Assembly (NCBI RefSeq): GCF_035594765.1
Contig: NC_085841.1
Location: 330,655,402-330,719,401 of the forward strand
Length of the DNA: 64,000 bases
Direction of reading: 5' to 3'
Origin: Anolis carolinensis
Lineage: Eukaryota
The position numbers were made by a program, and so were the translations under genes. Below are positions 19,351 through 50,519 of the stretch, one piece after another (positions within the stretch are counted from its first letter, which is position 1; each line of letters starts with the position of its first letter). The notes beneath the pieces were generated by a model. It was not told the origin of the DNA. It saw only the letters and a program-made list of their open reading frames with translations, and searched no databases.

Positions 19351-19358
19351 TATCATTA

Positions 19359-19623
19359 CAGTAGAGTCTCACTTATCCAACACTTGCTTATCCAACATTC
19401 TGGATTATCCAATGCATTTTTGTAGTCAATGTTTTCAATATATCGTGATATTTTGGTGCTAAATTCATAAATACAGTAATTACTACATAGCATTACTGCG
19501 TATTGAACTACTTTTTCTGCCAAATTTGTTGTCTAACATGATGTTTTGGTGCTTCATTTGTAAAATCATAACCTAATTTGATGTTTAATAGGCTTTTCCT
19601 TAATGCCTCCTTATTATCCAACA
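19359..19623. mobile_element. Tc1/mariner-pogo type MITE, truncated by the L2 insertion
   Basis: Left TIR with TA present; similarity stops abruptly at the L2 5' end. Confidence 0.8.
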
Positions 19624-20268
19624 TGTTTCCATCTGCTGGGCTGTTTCCATCTGCTGCCTGCCAGCACAGGAGAAGGGAGTCCTGCTGACCCACCTCTGGC
19701 CCTGCTACTCTGGAGTAAGGAGGAAAGGAAGAGAGTGGAGGAAGCCCTTAAAAACTCCTGCTTCTGGACTCTTCTTGCTGTTTCCATCTGCTGCCTGCCA
19801 GCACAGGAGAAGGGAGTCCTGCTGACCCACCTCTGGCCCTGCTACTCTGGGGTAAGGAGGAAAGGAGTGTGGAGAAGGAGAAGTGGAGGAAGCCATCGGA
19901 CCGGGAGGCTGCCTTCACTGGAGTCATCGCCTGCCACCTCAGAGGGTCCGCTTGGACAGCTTTCGTCGGACTGAATGCTCCCCATTGGAGATTTTTAGAT
20001 TCGCATATGGATATTGCTGTACTTGTCTAAAGAGTGTCCCTTATTAGATTTAATGTGTCGCCGCCACTTGGCTTTCTCCCCATTTTTGTTTCTTACCTAT
20101 CCCTTTTAAACCTATGTTTTTAGCAGTGTGAGTCAATTGAGTATACTTAACTCACATTGTTATAATTGCTTTGAGTAATTAGTGCCTTGGTGCCTTTATT
20201 CAGGACTGGGTTGTGTAGAAGAAGGAGGGTCTGGCTAGAAGAGTAGAGTAGTAGAGTTGTAGTAGAGA

Positions 20269-21261
20269 ATGAGTCAGACAGATGCACACAGGAACCACGA
20301 TCTATCCCAGTTATGCCACCTCATGGGTAGATCGTTTAGCCTCGTCCTCTCTCAGCTCGTAACAGTGAATGAGAAATTAGATCATCTCCTCAAAGGAATT
20401 TTGTTACTGGTAAACACCACTAGACTACAGGATGTTCCTGGGGAGGATAATAATAATACTGGTTATGATCTAAAGGAGGCCAGTTGTCCTTCAGATTTGG
20501 TGGGAGAGGTAGAACTTGGGCTCCAAAAGGGTAGTAAGGAGCTAAGATTAGAAAATGACGAGGGAGGGGATGATTTGTTTGTTGATCAAACTGTTCAAAG
20601 GAGGGAAGGTATGGATCTAGATTTGGCAGCGGTGAAGCCGATAACTAATTCTCCGTTGGAGGGGGATTTCTCTCCTCCATACGCAGAGGATTACTATGAA
20701 CATCTTGTACAGACGAAACAGCTGGCTTTTCAAATTGAAGACTCTATATTGAACAGGGGTAGATGGACCTCGGAAAGAGTGATCCAGAGGTCCTTGGGTC
20801 AAATTCTTTCAAGGAGCCTGACGACAGTCAAGCTAAAGATGATCACTTGGCTCCATAAGGGCTATCAATCATATGATCGCTCTTTACGCCTTATCTTCAC
20901 TTTTGAGAATAAGTCTATAACAGAGGAATTATGGGCCCTTAGGTTCCGGCTGCTCTCATGGGGCATTACCATTAGAAGAGTATTTGTGGACCCCGTGATT
21001 CGCCCTTTGGTGGCCAACCTATCTTTACACACTCAACCATCTGTTAGGCCCAGAGATAATAGGATGTGTAGTCCTCAGCATAGGCTCCCCCCTTTAGAAA
21101 AGTCTCAATTAGAGACTCTGGCCCAATCATTTTCCGTACCAGACCAGCAACTTTCACCCTCTTCAACCTCACTACGTTTTTCCAGTAGGCCCCATTTATC
21201 CCCTTCTTTTGAAGTAAAGTTAGATGGTGTGTCTAGTAACCTTTTGGATCCAGGGAGCTGA
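20269..21261 (+). CDS. L2 ORF1 protein (330 aa; putative coiled coil plus RRM-like domain)
   Basis: Intact ATG-initiated ORF directly upstream of, and in frame with, the APE-RT ORF. Confidence 0.7.
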   Translation: MSQTDAHRNHDLSQLCHLMGRSFSLVLSQLVTVNEKLDHLLKGILLLVNTTRLQDVPGEDNNNTGYDLKEASCPSDLVGEVELGLQKGSKELRLENDEGGDDLFVDQTVQRREGMDLDLAAVKPITNSPLEGDFSPPYAEDYYEHLVQTKQLAFQIEDSILNRGRWTSERVIQRSLGQILSRSLTTVKLKMITWLHKGYQSYDRSLRLIFTFENKSITEELWALRFRLLSWGITIRRVFVDPVIRPLVANLSLHTQPSVRPRDNRMCSPQHRLPPLEKSQLETLAQSFSVPDQQLSPSSTSLRFSSRPHLSPSFEVKLDGVSSNLLDPGS

Positions 21262-24200
21262 CTAGATTCTCTTAAGGATGCTCCAATTGATCCAGACTCC
21301 TTGGGGGGTGGGGAACAGGCGGGGGGTGGCTCCATCGAGGTCGTGTGGGGGAGGAGGAGGAATTGCCATCAACGAATTTCCAGGGAGAAGCGCAACAGGG
21401 TTTTTGCGACCCTGGAGAAGGATAGGTGTGGTAGCCTCCATGGTGGCCCCTCCCGGCTGAAGGTCCTGCTGTTTAATGCCAGATCCGTCAAAGGTAAATC
21501 ATCTATTATCCAGGATCTAATCATGGATGAACATGCGGATCTGGCCTGCATCACCGAAACCTGGTTGGATGATCTGGGTGGGGTTAGTCTTACCCAGCTT
21601 TGTCCTCCAGGTTTCGGGGTGCATCAGCAGGCCAGGCCAGGAGGGCGGGGAGGTGGGGTTGTGGTGGTCTTTTGGCAGTCCATCGCCTTGGTCAGATGCG
21701 CCGTTCCGCAATCTGCTGGGTTTGAGTGTCTCCACTTGAAGGTGGGTACCCGGGACAGTTTGGGGATTCTGCTGGTGTACCGTCCACCCCGCGACACAGC
21801 AGTCTCCGTGCCTGAGCTAGCAGAGGTGGTTTCTAGCGTGGTGTTGGGTTCCCAGCGCCTGTTGGTGCTGGGTGACTTCAACATTCACGCTGAGACCACC
21901 TTGACAGGTGCAGCTCAGGAATTCATGGCCGCCATGACGACCATGGGTCTGTCCCAAATAATATCGGGTCCCACTCATCAAGCTGGACATACACTCGACC
22001 TGGTTTTTGTTGCGGGCGATGGTTTGGTCGGAGTGGAAGAGCAAATTATTCTTCCATTGTCATGGTCCGACCACTATCTGATCAGTTTAAGACTAACCAT
22101 CTCTTCCAACCTCCGCAGGGGTGGTGGACCAATTAAGATGGTCCGCCCCAGGAGACTTATGGATCCTGAGAGATTCCTGAGGTCTTTTGGGGATCTGTCT
22201 ACCATGGAAGCTGACGATCCTGTCGATGCCCTGGTCACTTGTTATAATGACGAGTTGTCCAAGGCAATAGACACGATCGCTCCTGAGCATCCCCTCTCGC
22301 TGCGTGGAGTTGCCCCAGCTCCCTGGTTTACTGGGGAGCTGGCGGAGATGAAACGTGCGAGAAGGAGACTAGAGTGCCGCTGGCAGACAACTCGTGACGT
22401 ATCTGACTGAGCACGGTCTAGAGCCGCTATTAGGGCCTATTCCGCGGCGTTGCGGGCAGCCAGGAAAGTTTTCTCGACTGCCCGCATCGCGTCTGCAATA
22501 AATAGATCTTCAGAGTTGTTTCGAGTTGTTGGGGAGCTCCTCCACCCTCCTCAGGTCGGGGGAGCACCTGACATCTCGTCAACTCGGTGTAGCGAGTTCG
22601 CTCACCATTTTGCAGACAAAGTCGCTCAGATTCGTTCCGACTTAGACGCCGGCCTTGATGCATTGCCAGGTGAGGTAACTGAGGCATCTGTCTGTTCGAT
22701 CTTGTGGGATTCGTTTCAGCTTGTGCAGCCTGATGATGTGGACAAGATTCTTGGAGCGGTGAGGGCAACCACCTGTGCCCTTGACCCTTGCCCATCTTGG
22801 CTCTTAAAACAAGCCAGTGGAGGGCTAGTTGATTGGTTTGTGAGAATAATCAATGCCTCTTTGGAGCAGGGCATATTTCCATCTGGCCTAAAACAAGCTG
22901 TGGTGAGGCCTGTTTTGAAGAAAGCCTCCTTGGATCCGGCTAACCTCAGTAACTACAGACCAATCTCTAACCTTCCATTCTTGGGCAAGGTCTTGGAGCG
23001 GGTGGTTGCTTCCCAGCTCCAGGGATTCTTGGAAGATACGGATTTTCTGGACCAATCGCAGTCTGGTTTCAGACCTGGCTACAGTACCGAGACGGCTTTG
23101 GTCGCCTTGGTGGATGACCTCCGCAGAGAGCTGGACAGGGGGAGTGTGACCCTGCTGGTTCTCTTGGACATCTCAGCGGCTTTCGATACCATCGACCATG
23201 GTATCCTTCTGGGACGTCTCTCTGGGATGGGCCTTGGGGGTGCTGTTTTGCAGTGGCTCCAGTCCTTCCTGGAGGGTCGTTCCCAGATGGTGAAGCTGGG
23301 GGACACCTGCTCGGACCCCTGGCCATTGACCTGTGGGGTCCCGCAAGGTTCCATTTTGTCCCCCATGCTTTTTAATATCTACATGAAACCGCTGGGTGAG
23401 GTCATCCGGAGTTTTGGAGTGCGGTGCCATCTCTACGCGGATGACACCCAACTCTACTACTCCTTTCCACCTAATTCCAAGGAAGCCCCTCGGATACTGG
23501 ACCAGTGTCTGGCCGCTGTATTGGCCTGGATGAGGGCGAACAAGCTGAACCTCAATCCTGACAAGACAGAGGTCCTCCAGGTCAGTCGTACGTCTGATCG
23601 GGGTATTGGGTGGCAACCTGTGCTTGACAGGGTCGCACTCCCCCTGAAGGCGCAGGTCCGCAGCTTGGGGGTCCTCCTGGACTCTGCGCTAACACTTGAG
23701 GCCCAGGTGTCGGCCGTGGCTGGGAGGGCCTTTGCACAACTAAAACTTGTGCGCCAGCTGCGACCATACCTCGAGAAGTCAGATCTGACCATGGTGGTCC
23801 ATGCCTTAATTACCTCTAGACTGGATTACTGCAATGCGCTCTACGTGGGGCTGCCTTTGAAGACGGCTCGGAAACTACAACTAGTACAACGATCGGCAGC
23901 CAGGTTTCTAACTGGGGCAGATTACAGGGCGCGCTCAACGCCGCTGTTTAAAGAGCTCCACTGGCTGCCATTTATTTTCCGAGCCCAATTCAAGGTGCAG
24001 GTTATCACCTACAAAGCCCTAAACGGTTTGGGACCCACCTACCTTCGAGACCGCATTTCCCCCTATGAACCCGCACGACCTCTTCGCTCGTCGGGGGAGG
24101 CCCTCCTCTCGCTTCCACCAACTTCGCAGTTGCGGTTGGTGGGGACGAGGGAGAGGGCCTTCTCCGCCGTGGCCCCCCGGCTGTGGAACTCGCTCCCCAG

Positions 24201-24282
24201 GGAGATTAGGCAGGCCCCTACCCTACTTTCTTTCAGGAAGAGCCTGAAAACTTGGCTATTCCAGAAGGCCTTCGTTGACTGA
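21262..24282 (+). pseudogene. L2 ORF2 endonuclease/reverse transcriptase with one internal nonsense codon (TGA 22408-22410)
   Basis: ORFs 21301-22410 and 22450-24282 share a frame with no frameshift; all catalytic motifs are recognisable. Confidence 0.9.
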
Positions 24283-24452
24283 TCCTTGTGGGATCATGTT
24301 ATTTACCTATTAAGCATTAGAATGTCCATGACAGTGAAAATGGAATCATAGTACTATAACTGTGTACCAGCGAAACAATACTACTTGTATCTTATGCGAT
24401 TGACCTTTGTCAATTCTAAATTCTAAAAGAAAGGCACATTATTAAATAAGTA

Positions 24453-24796
24453 CAGTAGGGTCTTGCTTAGCCAATCTTCGCTTATCCAATGTTATGTATT
24501 ATCCAACACAGTCTGCCTTTTAGTAGTCAGTGTTTTTGTAGTCAATGTTTTCAATACATTGCGATGTTTTGGAGCTAAAGTCATAAATACAGTAATTACT
24601 ACATAAAGTTACAGTGTATTGAATTTCATTTTCTGCCAATTTGTTGTAAAACATGATATCTTGATGCTTAATTTGTAAAATCATGATGTAATTTGACGTT
24701 TAATAGGCTTTTCCTTAATCCCTCCTTATTATCCAACATTTTCGCTTATACAATGTTCTGCCGGCCCATTTATGTTGGATAAGCAAGACTCTACTG
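24453..24796. mobile_element. Tc1/mariner-pogo type MITE, more diverged copy
   Basis: Degenerate TIRs and TA flanks. Confidence 0.8.
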
Positions 24797-24929
24797 TAAA
24801 TAAATTCACAGATTCAAGTAGAAAGAAACACTCCTTGACACAGTCACATACAGCTTTCTGGGGAATAAACAGCACTTTGAACTAGTCCTAGAAATAATTG
24901 TTTATTTATTTTATTTGCTGCCTTTCCCT

Positions 24930-25265
24930 AGTTCATACAGGGAAAGCTGTTAATTCAGATAGTCTGGTCCTAAATCATATAGGGCTTTGTAGGCCATGCC
25001 CAGCACTTTGAATTGTGCCTGGAAATAAAGCAGGAGACAGTGCAGCTGCTTTAATAAGGGAGTTATATGGCCCTGGTTGACATTCTGACCACAACTTTCT
25101 GAATCTGCTGTAGTTTCTAAACAGTTTCCAAAGGCAGCACCACATAGAGTGCTAATAGTAGTCCAAACAAGATGTAATAAAGGCATGTGTTATTGACATC
25201 TCAAGGAAGGGTGTAGCTGGCATAATAGTTTTAGCTGTGCAAATGTAGTCCTGGCCACTGCTGAA
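24930..25265 (-). mobile_element. Old L2 fragment
   Basis: HITPLLKQLH.L...FQAQFKVL...YKAL..LGP and FAQLKL..QL.P peptides on the minus strand. Confidence 0.75.
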
Positions 25266-26694
25266 GGATGTGCAGAGGAAATAGCGTTGGTGCGTATGAG
25301 CTGGGACCATTGTGTATCATATGCAGTTCCAAGCAATTTAATCTGGGAGTGATTAAAGTATATGTAACTAAGGTCAGATCCTCTAAAGCAATGGTTCTCA
25401 ACCTGTGGGTGCACAGATGTTTTGGCCTTCAACTTCCAGAAATCCTAGCATCTGATAAGCTGGCTGGGATTTCTGGGAGTTGTAGGCCAAAATATCTGGG
25501 GGCACACAGGTTTAGAATTACTGTTCTAGAAAGTCATACAGCTACTACACCATAGAAATTGTTCAAATGAACTCCTAGCTATGGCTGCCAATTAAATATT
25601 CAGGAGCTCTGCATTTAAGAGCACCTGCAAGCTAAAACATAGTCATGCAAGGGAAATACAATCACATTCAGAAAGGTTTATATGCTTACATTCATTATCC
25701 TATACTGTACTCTGTTGCAGATCCCTATGCTGCCTTGGCACAAACTGAGAGGATGAAACAAGAACATGACAGGGAAGAGACTATAACTGTAGCATATGTA
25801 GTTCCTGGGGACTTTGGGATGTATAGTCAAGATGTTAGGCACAAAAATGAAAAGCAGGACTTTAAAGATGTCATTTCATCCAAACCCACTACAGTGGGCC
25901 TTTGGTATCCATATGTGTTTTGGTTACTAGAACCCCCATGGATACCAAAATCCATAGATGCTCAAGTTCCATCATGAAAATTTGTGGGTTCCCACACCTG
26001 TCTGAGAAGAATTGGTCTATGTCAGTCCACTCCAACCTGGTGTTCATCAGAACATGTTGAATTTCGGTTCTCATCAGACCTAGCCATTTGGGCTATTGGA
26101 TAATGGGATTAATAGCCAATACATCTGGGGGGAAATTTATATGCTCAGTGTTCTTGAAATTGTATGTGAGTTAGAACTTATCAACTAATGGATCAATTCA
26201 AACACAGATTTAGCAACAGATAGCTAGATAGATGGTTTGTAAATTAGAATTGATAAGATATGGATATATAAAAATTTAGAAAGGGGCCACACAGTCAAAA
26301 AGACATAATCTTCATTAAATTAGAAATTAAAAGGAAACAAATATTCTCATACTATTTTTTTGGTAGAAATCCAAGGTCAAAATGTATAATAGCATAAGAC
26401 AATACTGTCTTCTGTCCCGAATTCTTTAAATGAAAAGGAACCAGGGCTTCAGTGTAATTTTAAATGTAAAAACAATGGGTTAGACTTTCAGAGCTGTTGG
26501 ATAAATGTAAAGTGAATATGAGGTGCAGAAAATCAGATAGAGATTGAGTAAAACCACCAGGTGACTAAAGGTATTACACGGAACACAGGAAAACCAGAGA
26601 AGAGCTTGTTTACTCCAGAAGAGACTACAGCAACACACACACACACATAATATGGAACATATATTAAGAGAGTAAGAGATTAGCAGAAGTTTAA

Positions 26695-34525: not shown

Positions 34526-35197
<672 letters not shown>

Positions 35198-35501
35198 TAA
35201 GATGTCCTCGCCTTTTCTTTTCATTTGATAGAAGAAACTAGTTTTTGGGTTATTGGGGGGTTTTCTTTGACAGAGTTCACCTTTATTTACTTGGCATGAC
35301 ATTGTTTTTGGAAGATAACTCTGTATCCACTGTCGGTGAACTTTTGTGGAAAACTTGTTCTGCAAGATAAGTATAGCAAGAAACAACTAAATCAAGCATG
35401 ATCAGTCTGGCTTGCTTGCTGTTAAAGTGCATCCTCTTCATCACATTGTCTTGTGTGTCATTTCTTCCCCCCCCCCCCCCTAAAAGAGGCTGAGAGAGAG
35501 G

Positions 35502-36889: not shown

Positions 36890-37210
36890 AGGCAGGTTTT
36901 TAAAAACCTGCCTTAATAGAAACATTTTAGCCTGCCGCCGGAAGAACAGCAGGGAGGGGGCCATTCTGGTCTCCCTAGACAGGGAGTTCCAGAGAAGAGG
37001 GGCAGCCACAGAAAAGGCACTCTCCAAACTGCTTGTGATGGCAGTGCGACTGAGAGAAGGGCCTCTCCTTAGGACCTCAGTGCCTGGGCAGATTTGTACT
37101 GAGAGATACGGCCTGCCAAATAGCTTGGACCTGAGCCATATAGGGCTTTACAGTTCATGATTAGCACTTTGAATTGTGTCTGGAAACAAACTTGCAGTTA
37201 GTGGAGTTGT
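36890..37210 (-). mobile_element. L2 fragment
   Basis: AFSVAAPLLWNSL.RE.R.APSL..FR...K..L peptide on the minus strand. Confidence 0.8.
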
Positions 37211-44949: not shown

Positions 44950-45360
44950 TCTTTTCTGGGCACAATTCAAAGTGCTGGTCATGATCTGTACAACCCTAGA
45001 TGATATGTACAACTCTGGCTTAGGACCATCTTGTCTGAAGATATATAAACCTACATATAAACCTGACAGAGTTCTAATATTTACAAGAGATAGCTATCTC
45101 TCGGCTCCACCACCATAATGTGGAAACAAGGGAGGGCCTTCTTTGTAGTTGCGCCCACTCTCTGGAACCTCTTCTTGTGAGATGCTGGGCTGATCCCACT
45201 CCCCCTTTCCTGTTTTTCTTTTGGCAGTAGGCAAAAACCTTTTTGTTTAAACTTTTTTAAAAATCTTTTATTGTGGGGTTTTTTTTTAATTGACTGTCTC
45301 TAGGAGCTGCCTTAGGTCCCACTGTGGGAGAAAAGTGGCATGCAAATGAAATAAATAAAC
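44950..45360 (+). mobile_element. Old L2 3' fragment
   Basis: AQFKVLV...LGP..L peptide, GGGCCTTC...CTCTGGAAC and a degenerate L2 tail. Confidence 0.65.
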
Positions 45361-49320: not shown

Positions 49321-50519
49321 CGAGGGTTGAATGAAAAGTAATGCCTCCACCTTCGTAACTCCACAACAGATGGCAGTACTGGTATGCGGCAGGTACTGGC
49401 TTGTTTAGTAGACTCTCCTCTACAGTTCCATTTGAAGGGAAGCCTTAGCATTGAATGGTTGTGTTGTTGAAGTGCGAAGTATGGAACCTTGTGCAGATGG
49501 TCGGTTAATGTGACTTAAGCAACATGCAGTCACTGAATTCTTGACAGCAGAAGGTGTCACCCCAAAGGAGATCCATCAGAGAATGCAAGCTGCTTATGGT
49601 GATTGTGTTGATGTGAGTACTGTGTGTCATTGGGTGAGTAAGTTTAAAGATGTTGAGGTGGGAACATCTGACTTGCGTGACAAACGAAGAGTTGGACGTC
49701 CTTTACTTGACTATCGGAAGATCTGTGCACGATGGGTACCCAGGTTGCTGATGCCTGAAATGAAAGTGCACAGTCTTGAAATTTGCCAGGAACTCCTCTC
49801 ACGTTATGAGAATGAGGGTAATGCCTTTCTCCATTCAATTGTGACAGGAGATGAAACATGGGTTCACCATTACGACCCGGAGACAAAGTGTCAGTCTATG
49901 GAATATCGATACAAAAGACTCGCCCCAGAAAAAGAAATTCAAGACACAGCCCTCAGCTGGAAAAATCATGGCAACAATGTTCTGGGATGCAGATGGTGTT
50001 ATCTATGTTGATTTCCTTGAATGTGGAACAACAATAAATTCAGAGTGTTACATCACAACGCTGCAAACTTTGAAACAACGGCTGACAAGAATCTGAAAGG
50101 AAAAGGGAAATGTTTTCCTGCAGCATGACAATGCCAAACCACACTCTTCACATGCCACCACAGCAGAACTTCAGAGACTGCATCCTCCATACAGTCCAGA
50201 TTTAGCACCGTCTGACTTCCATCTGTTCCTGATAATGAAAGAAGATCTATGGGGACATCATTATGCTTCTGATGAAGATGTTGAGAGAACTGTGAGATGC
50301 TGGTTTCGGAAACAGAGTGTCGACTTCTTCCGTGACGGCTTCAGAAAACTTGTTCATCGTTGGCAGAAATGTATCCAATGTCTGGTGATTATGTGGAAAA
50401 GTGAATAGTGGTAGTTAAAGAGCACATTCTAAGGATTATTTCTGCGTTTGATTTATTAAAATATTCCCATCCAAACCCAAGTAATGAAGGTGGAGGCATT
50501 ACTTTTCACTCAGCCCTCG
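49321..50519 (+). mobile_element. Mariner transposon with decayed, internally deleted transposase
   Basis: TIRs CGAGGGTTGAATGAAAAGTAATGCCTCCACCTTC, TA flanks; motifs WVPRLL, IVTGDETW, HDNA.PH, YSPDLAPSDFHLF broken by frameshifts and stops. Confidence 0.93.

Follow-up and report, generated by a model that had tools for sequence, protein, structure and literature searches.

A 64,000 bp stretch of the Anolis carolinensis genome (contig NC_085841.1, positions 330,655,402 to 330,719,401; hereafter the window) was found to contain a single full-length long interspersed nuclear element (LINE) of ~4.8 kb at ~19624-24427, which is best explained as a slightly decayed member of an Anolis L2 family that has kept its full length, the nearest family being L2_AC_15 or L2_AC_14. 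Its second open reading frame (ORF2) has no usable AUG ahead of the endonuclease domain and lies in frame behind the UGA stop codon of ORF1, which is followed directly by CUAG. As there is no usable AUG and the leaky stop is in frame, readthrough is the simplest route to ORF2, and readthrough at UGA-CUAG is considered the best explanation of the AUG-less ORF2, with a probability of roughly 0.6 (the probabilities of the competing readings are a matter of judgement). The junction itself is a real anomaly, probably at the level of the family.

Stop codon context and the start of ORF2

The element has three consecutive stop-to-stop frames of the same phase (20266-21261, 21262-22410, and 22411-24282). 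The TGA at 21259-21261, which closes ORF1, stands in the context GGG AGC TGA CTA GAT, with CTAG at 21262-21265, and beyond it the frame stays open (21262-22407) and runs into the endonuclease. In these respects the sequence agrees with the first-pass annotation of the window, which had proposed a readthrough fusion of ORF1 to ORF2 at this point. A downstream ORF in frame behind one stop in a leaky context is the arrangement expected of readthrough, and the candidate signal, comprising the last sense codon AGC (Ser), UGA, and CUAG (21256-21265, plus strand), is one whose motif has a published effect (PMC9841425). CTAG follows only one of the 72 TGA trinucleotides found in any frame between 20269 and 24282, namely the ORF1 stop, and, counting both strands of the whole window, four of 2442; its chance expectation after a given stop is ~0.25-0.4%. 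In human/mammalian cells, UGA_CUAG has been reported to give ~1.5-17% readthrough with a strong dependence on the P-site codon; the Ser codon AGU gave ~16% in the OPRL1 context, and a value for AGC is not stated in the available part of that paper (PMC9841425).

No AUG overlaps the ORF1 stop (AGC TGA CTA) as stop-start coupling of the SART1 type would have it, the 2A motif D(V/I)ExNPGP was absent from the translation when read by eye, the stretch from the ORF1 stop to the endonuclease showed no splice acceptor with a pyrimidine-rich tract, the G-rich linker did not contain a four-tract G-quadruplex pattern, and Rfam returned one chance match only (E 0.32).

The APE-type endonuclease domain (21451-22107, plus strand; residues 64-282 of the post-stop frame) was identified by Pfam and by fold match, the fold beginning at residue 64-65. 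In the fold search TRAS1 was matched with Z 20.7 and a root-mean-square deviation (rmsd) of 3.0 over 200 aligned residues, and the R1Bm and L1 endonucleases also matched; PDB sequence searches with the domain gave nothing significant. The first in-frame ATG past the ORF1 stop lies at 21523 (residue 88), inside the domain, and the LFNARS motif begins upstream of it at 21469. The earlier claim that initiation at an AUG would truncate the endonuclease was thus borne out, the fold opening 23 codons before ATG 21523, and an ATG-started ORF2 would lose the first strand along with LFNARS and the greater part of the first helix. The Asn of LFNARS is required for activity in L1.

Between the stop and the endonuclease lies a linker of 63 codons that is largely unstructured. 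It carries in frame, 24 codons past the stop (21334-21360, plus strand), an I-x-V-V-x-G-R motif also found N-terminally in ORF2 proteins of sister L2s, which ranked best of 2178 pieces against a profile of nine relatives but with a weak E of 0.058. In two relatives, P0041 and P0008, a long N-terminal extension of ORF2 with a DLLALR motif stands in place of this linker, which from sequence suggests that related L2s include a second layout, with a single ORF.

The linker is also where AUG-independent expression of a separate ORF2 protein (ORF2p) would have to begin, either by termination-reinitiation as in mammalian L1 or at a near-cognate start codon, the CUAG being then due to chance or a minor side route. 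There is precedent for this in L1 and SART1 (PMC5009743, PMC5972666, PMC2881922). The strongest near-cognate candidate is an in-frame CUG at 21412-21414 (plus strand), whose strong context (A at -3, G at +4) and position 13 codons ahead of the endonuclease fold weigh against readthrough. Four weaker candidates at or before the I-x-V-V-x-G-R motif (AAG 21274, AUU 21286, UUG 21301, and AUC 21334) all have a pyrimidine at -3. However, the CUG may merely encode a Leu also found in relatives, and a start there would leave the motif at 21334 untranslated, though the signal of that motif is weak. Reinitiation explains the missing AUG, but not the stop context; an in-frame stop-free linker and CTAG would both have to be present by chance (~0.25-0.4% for CTAG alone). 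On balance this explanation, the chief competitor of readthrough, is regarded as rather unlikely.

Folding of the RNA 3' of the stop did not favor the stem that had been suggested between 21281 and 21301. The preferred fold was a possible hairpin (21268-21308, plus strand) with an 11-bp stem pairing 21268-21278 with 21298-21308, for which pair probabilities were 0.6-0.8 on a single sequence. Its position, 6 nt after the stop, falls where stimulators lie in other systems, which is 6-9 nt after the stop (PMC3159437). When upstream RNA was included, a competing stem (21244-21258 with 21280-21295) enclosing the ORF1 stop was predicted with a pair probability of ~0.97, and was not above shuffled sequences.

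ORF2 lengths in the published Anolis L2 families

A published table gives ORF2 length and codon-position composition for 17 young L2 consensus families of A. carolinensis, whose ORFs were checked as intact; two ORFs were described, an AT-rich ORF1 (~54%) preceding a GC-rich ORF2 (PMC7140322). Family numbers and lengths are also given in PMC5389967. Lengths were counted back from the stop of the present element, a comparison which assumes few indels, and were taken to run from ATG to stop, on which the available text of PMC7140322 is silent. On this basis the ORF2 of 10 of the 17 families falls short of the 2814 nt needed for LFNARS, and in seven it is below the 2412 nt needed for GDFN. Three of the 17 lengths land exactly on one of the element's seven Met codons among 406 (P 0.003, which is overstated, since two of the three fall on one position and the families are not independent of each other by descent), and a fourth coincides with a Met of the relative P0151. 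AUG-independent reinitiation would account equally well for the AUG-less ORF2 in these 10 families.

The lengths of L2_AC_15 (2760 nt) and L2_AC_14 (2358 nt) correspond exactly to ATG 21523 and ATG 21925, and these two families lie at composition distances of 4.6 and 4.1 per 100 codons, respectively, with the remaining 15 at 6.1 or more. Most differences from L2_AC_15 are C to T or G to A changes, and purine counts are off by 1, 0, and -2 of 920, a pattern expected of CpG decay. Simulation indicated that the 12 composition counts together with the length fit a copy of L2_AC_15 decayed by 0.5-1%, or a sister family ~5% away; L2_AC_14 fits equally, and the family name is therefore tentative. That a start codon was lost in this copy alone is unlikely, as ORF2 in the nearest consensus families opens at these very downstream ATGs. 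The absence of a usable AUG from ORF2 is seen in this copy and looks family-wide, most sister families apparently lacking one too, to judge by the published lengths.

The out-of-frame (+1) AUG at 21278, correctly given as out of frame by the first-pass annotation, opens an ORF of 60 codons (21278-21460, plus strand). It might be the true start of ORF2, 16 nt past the stop, if one base lost in a G run had put ORF2 into the frame of ORF1. G runs are indel-prone, this AUG has A at -3, and its distance to the shared motif is ~19 codons, the corresponding Met of P0002 and P0007 being at 15 and 18. Furthermore, the 3006 nt of L2_AC_9 match its predicted length (ATG 21278 plus one base) exactly, a coincidence which counts against readthrough (PMC7140322). 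However, the composition distance to L2_AC_9 is 10.0-10.4 per 100 codons, compared with 4.6 for L2_AC_15 and 4.1 for L2_AC_14, and is without a CpG-decay component, the nearest families are without an upstream in-frame ATG, no other frameshift was found over ~3,900 coding bases, and CTAG after the stop would again be chance. Composition argues against this copy being a young L2_AC_9, though L2_AC_9 itself may really start at ATG 21278. For the present element a start at 21278 is considered improbable.

ORF1 and the condition of this copy

ORF1 (20269-21261, plus strand) encodes a protein of 330 amino acids with a predicted N-terminal coiled coil (residues 1-57) and a predicted domain resembling an RNA recognition motif (RRM; residues 147-244), followed by a Ser/Pro-rich tail ending in Ser (residues 241-330, modeled with low confidence). 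The structure model, built from an alignment of five sequences (mean pLDDT 51.6), has a long N-terminal helix (3-53) and a mixed domain at 147-244. The latter matched human L1 ORF1p (2w7a) with Z 6.7 and an rmsd of 3.7 over 84 aligned residues, tied with other RRMs. Type II (L1-like) ORF1 proteins consist of a coiled coil, an RRM, and a C-terminal domain (PMC4120745; the available part does not mention Anolis), and a coiled coil with a single RRM is thus a predicted arrangement in common with these, which does not amount to homology. No Pfam family scored above cut-off for ORF1 and the ESM Atlas gave no usable match for it.

Homologues of ORF1 bear on whether its stop is real. Of 1982 candidates in a word-index search, one was a homologue (52% identity, 322 amino acids, from A. 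carolinensis), and there was no fused form among 4256 longer candidates, which is weak evidence. With ORF1 read through into the endonuclease as the HMMER query, the best 150 matches included four to ORF1 (P0001, P0037, P0048, and P0051; 322, 343, 349, and 356 amino acids) and no protein covering both ORF1 and endonuclease. The four homologues end 81-109 residues after a DP-x-x-x-PL motif, as compared with 90 here. As they end at a like place and none is fused, the ORF1 stop is judged from sequence to be genuine, the homologues being stand-alone proteins of 322-356 amino acids. Protein records end at any stop codon, so that a shared ORF1 end is silent on readthrough. Ser is the last residue in four of the five ORF1s (given the Ser content of the tail, P 0.009, noticed post hoc), and the terminal Ser of P0037, P0048, and P0051 may reflect a favored P-site codon or a TCA TGA stop-start overlap in relatives.

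These observations make it very improbable that the family has a single long ORF1-endonuclease-reverse transcriptase frame that was broken in this copy by a CGA to TGA change at 21259, an alternative raised in the first-pass annotation. A change of that kind does exist at 22408. However, the homologues stop at a like place and none is fused, and no RT-bearing ORF among the 17 consensus families exceeds 3216 nt, where ~4014 would be needed and two ORFs are described (PMC7140322).

The lizard L2 ORF1 is treated differently in the literature. Lepidosaur L2s have been said to lack ORF1 (PMC13343379), a statement contradicted by the ORF1 of this element and also at odds with PMC7140322, in which no known or conserved domain was found in Anolis L2 ORF1. 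The predicted coiled coil and RRM are domain content that is not reported for lizard L2 ORF1 in the available parts of these two papers.

A second in-frame TGA (22408-22410, plus strand; codon 714) is a lesion of this copy that the first-pass annotation overlooked. Among 12 relatives with at least 45% identity, this codon is Arg in nine and Gln in two, with a gap in one. The proposed fusion of ~1337 amino acids is correct in length, ATG 20269 to 24279 being 1337 codons, but cannot be made by this copy because of TGA 22408, and the claim can concern only the family. The remainder of ORF2 (22411-24282, plus strand; stop at 24280-24282) contains the reverse transcriptase (RVT_1, E 2.4e-36; YADD at 23434). 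With PF03372, PF14529, and PF00078 above cut-off, endonuclease preceding reverse transcriptase, the element is an APE-type retrotransposon without long terminal repeats (a non-LTR element). Its composition (ORF1 55.2% AT, ORF2 44.7% AT) and length of ~4.8 kb (clade 4.8-6.3 kb) fit the Anolis L2 clade, the assignment drawing on composition, length, and a match of 67% identity to an RT protein of A. carolinensis.

The 5' untranslated region (UTR; 19624-20268, plus strand) has a 5' end placed by the similarity to a flanking repeat, which ends at 19627; it holds four upstream ATGs and a 90-nt segment present twice with 137-nt spacing (19640-19729 and 19777-19866). The 3' UTR (24283-24427, plus strand; end placed from sequence) closes with two TTCTAAA units. 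Copies of a repeat resembling miniature inverted-repeat transposable elements flank the L2 at 19356-19627 and 24451-24798, with terminal inverted repeats of 24-27 bp. The left copy is cut at the L2 5' end, a target-site duplication is not evident, and about ten further pieces of the repeat occur in the window.

No other copy of the junction was found in the 64-kb window, the other L2-like elements being 3' fragments only (9792-10689, 24932-25351, 36896-37185, and 44954-45282; 34-68% protein identity). An ORF1 profile matched none of 52 candidate stretches in GTDB genomes, and plasmid and phage collections gave no match. The endonuclease profile gave three of 109, all of which were set aside (27-28% identity, frameshifted, repeat-rich contigs, no ORF1 match). 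A GTDB metagenome-assembled genome of Metamycoplasmataceae (L001-L003, 5001-5931) has microsatellite-rich contigs with decayed LINEs that resemble eukaryotic DNA in a bacterial bin. Elsewhere in the window, an open frame of 224 codons at 34526-35200 (plus strand) has the look of a large host-gene coding exon, presumably from GPATCH2L, and a remnant at 49514-50011 (plus strand) resembles a mariner transposase.

Readthrough as a proposed route to LINE ORF2 expression

The readthrough proposed in the first-pass annotation was upheld in part: with two alternatives now unlikely, AUG-independent expression of ORF2 is what is left, and the in-frame UGA-CUAG points to readthrough as its means. Under readthrough, translation would start at ATG 20269 and most ribosomes would halt at UGA 21259, yielding the coiled-coil and RRM ORF1 protein. 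A few per cent would read the UGA with a near-cognate tRNA, aided by the CUAG context, and cross the 63-codon linker to reach the endonuclease and reverse transcriptase. Where a family member is intact, the resulting ORF1-endonuclease-reverse transcriptase (ORF1-EN-RT) fusion of ~1337 amino acids would supply all of the enzyme, in an amount far below that of ORF1p, much as the ratio of Gag to Gag-Pol is set in gammaretroviruses. More speculatively, it could enter the ribonucleoprotein via its own coiled coil, favoring action in cis. Even chance readthrough of premature L1 ORF2 stops has been thought sufficient for low Alu mobilisation (PMC4176336).

Besides the CUG context and the L2_AC_9 length, several points weigh against readthrough. 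A single junction has been seen, so that TGA, CTAG, and frame are known from one copy, and that copy has at least one lesion (22408). Seven of the 17 families are long enough to pass the first endonuclease motif, and the ATG-to-stop reading of the lengths is our own. The sister proteins P0002, P0007, P0031, and P0151 start with a Met 4-39 residues before the shared motif; the N-terminus of P0151 was dropped as start evidence, since such gene models may add an exon. The 3' hairpin is no more stable than shuffled sequences (z 0.0 to 0.44). Finally, initiation of ORF2 in human L1 is considered not to depend on its AUG (PMC5009743), and the functions of ORF1 have been argued to need a product separate from ORF2 (PMC3708506).

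Readthrough is known from a few LTR retrotransposons. Gammaretroviruses, alphaviruses, and a number of vertebrate genes are established cases as well (PMC3159437, PMC9841425). As in gag-pol of Moloney murine leukaemia virus, a structural gene and a polymerase here share one frame with one stop between them, and a low ratio of fusion would result; that virus, however, uses UAG with a pseudoknot 8 nt downstream, whereas the present element has UGA-CUAG, no significant structure, and no Pfam protease domain. Alphaviruses, OPRL1, and DUS4L have the identical UGA-CUA(G) context, to which alphaviruses add a conserved 3' stem-loop, while the hairpin here does not exceed shuffles. Vertebrate readthrough genes yield C-terminal extensions, whereas here the product would be the sole copy of an essential enzyme.

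Among LINEs, the route by which ORF2 is translated from a bicistronic RNA has been described as unclear, the known routes being stop-start coupling, AUG-independent reinitiation, and 2A skipping (PMC2881922, PMC5009743, PMC3708506). L1 and SART1 likewise have a bicistronic RNA and little ORF2p, and L1 ORF2 is thought AUG-independent, but in both of them an AUG precedes the endonuclease and ORF2p is separate, with a 63-nt spacer in L1 and a UAAUG overlap in SART1. The 2A (StopGo) sequences of L2, CR1, Crack, and Ingi are another case in which APE-type LINEs use recoding of a viral kind close to the N-terminus of ORF2 (PMC3708506); 2A divides one ORF, whereas here a stop would be joined over and there is no 2A motif. 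L2_AC_15 and L2_AC_14 share with this element the ~4.8 kb length, AT-rich ORF1, GC-rich ORF2 (55% GC), ORF2 length from the ATG, and codon-position composition; the available text on the Anolis families reports no conserved domain in ORF1, where a coiled coil and RRM are predicted here, and does not discuss the mode of ORF2 translation (PMC7140322). ORF2 translation is also not addressed in the available parts of PMC3880073 and PMC4559204, and programmed ORF1-ORF2 readthrough in a LINE was not found in the open-licence literature, a scope that leaves out subscription papers and Repbase reports.

A wider scenario is judged slightly less likely than not: that the recently diversified anole L2 clade gained a new coiled-coil/RRM ORF1, lost the ORF2 start, and makes its endonuclease and reverse transcriptase only as a Gag-Pol-like UGA-CUAG readthrough fusion, the terminal Ser codon being kept to tune the leak. 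Even under reinitiation, AUG-free expression of ORF2 could naturally be studied in a group of vertebrate LINE families that are young and active and lack an AUG ahead of the endonuclease, and ATG-defined ORF2 annotations of such families remove part of the endonuclease. If readthrough is correct, it would add a retrovirus-like route to LINE ORF2 expression, with a covalent ORF1-RT fusion, and would tie LINE activity to host readthrough control. Under the wider scenario, programmed readthrough would be an obligatory route of LINE expression, working through the same UGA-CUAG signal that is used by vertebrate host genes.

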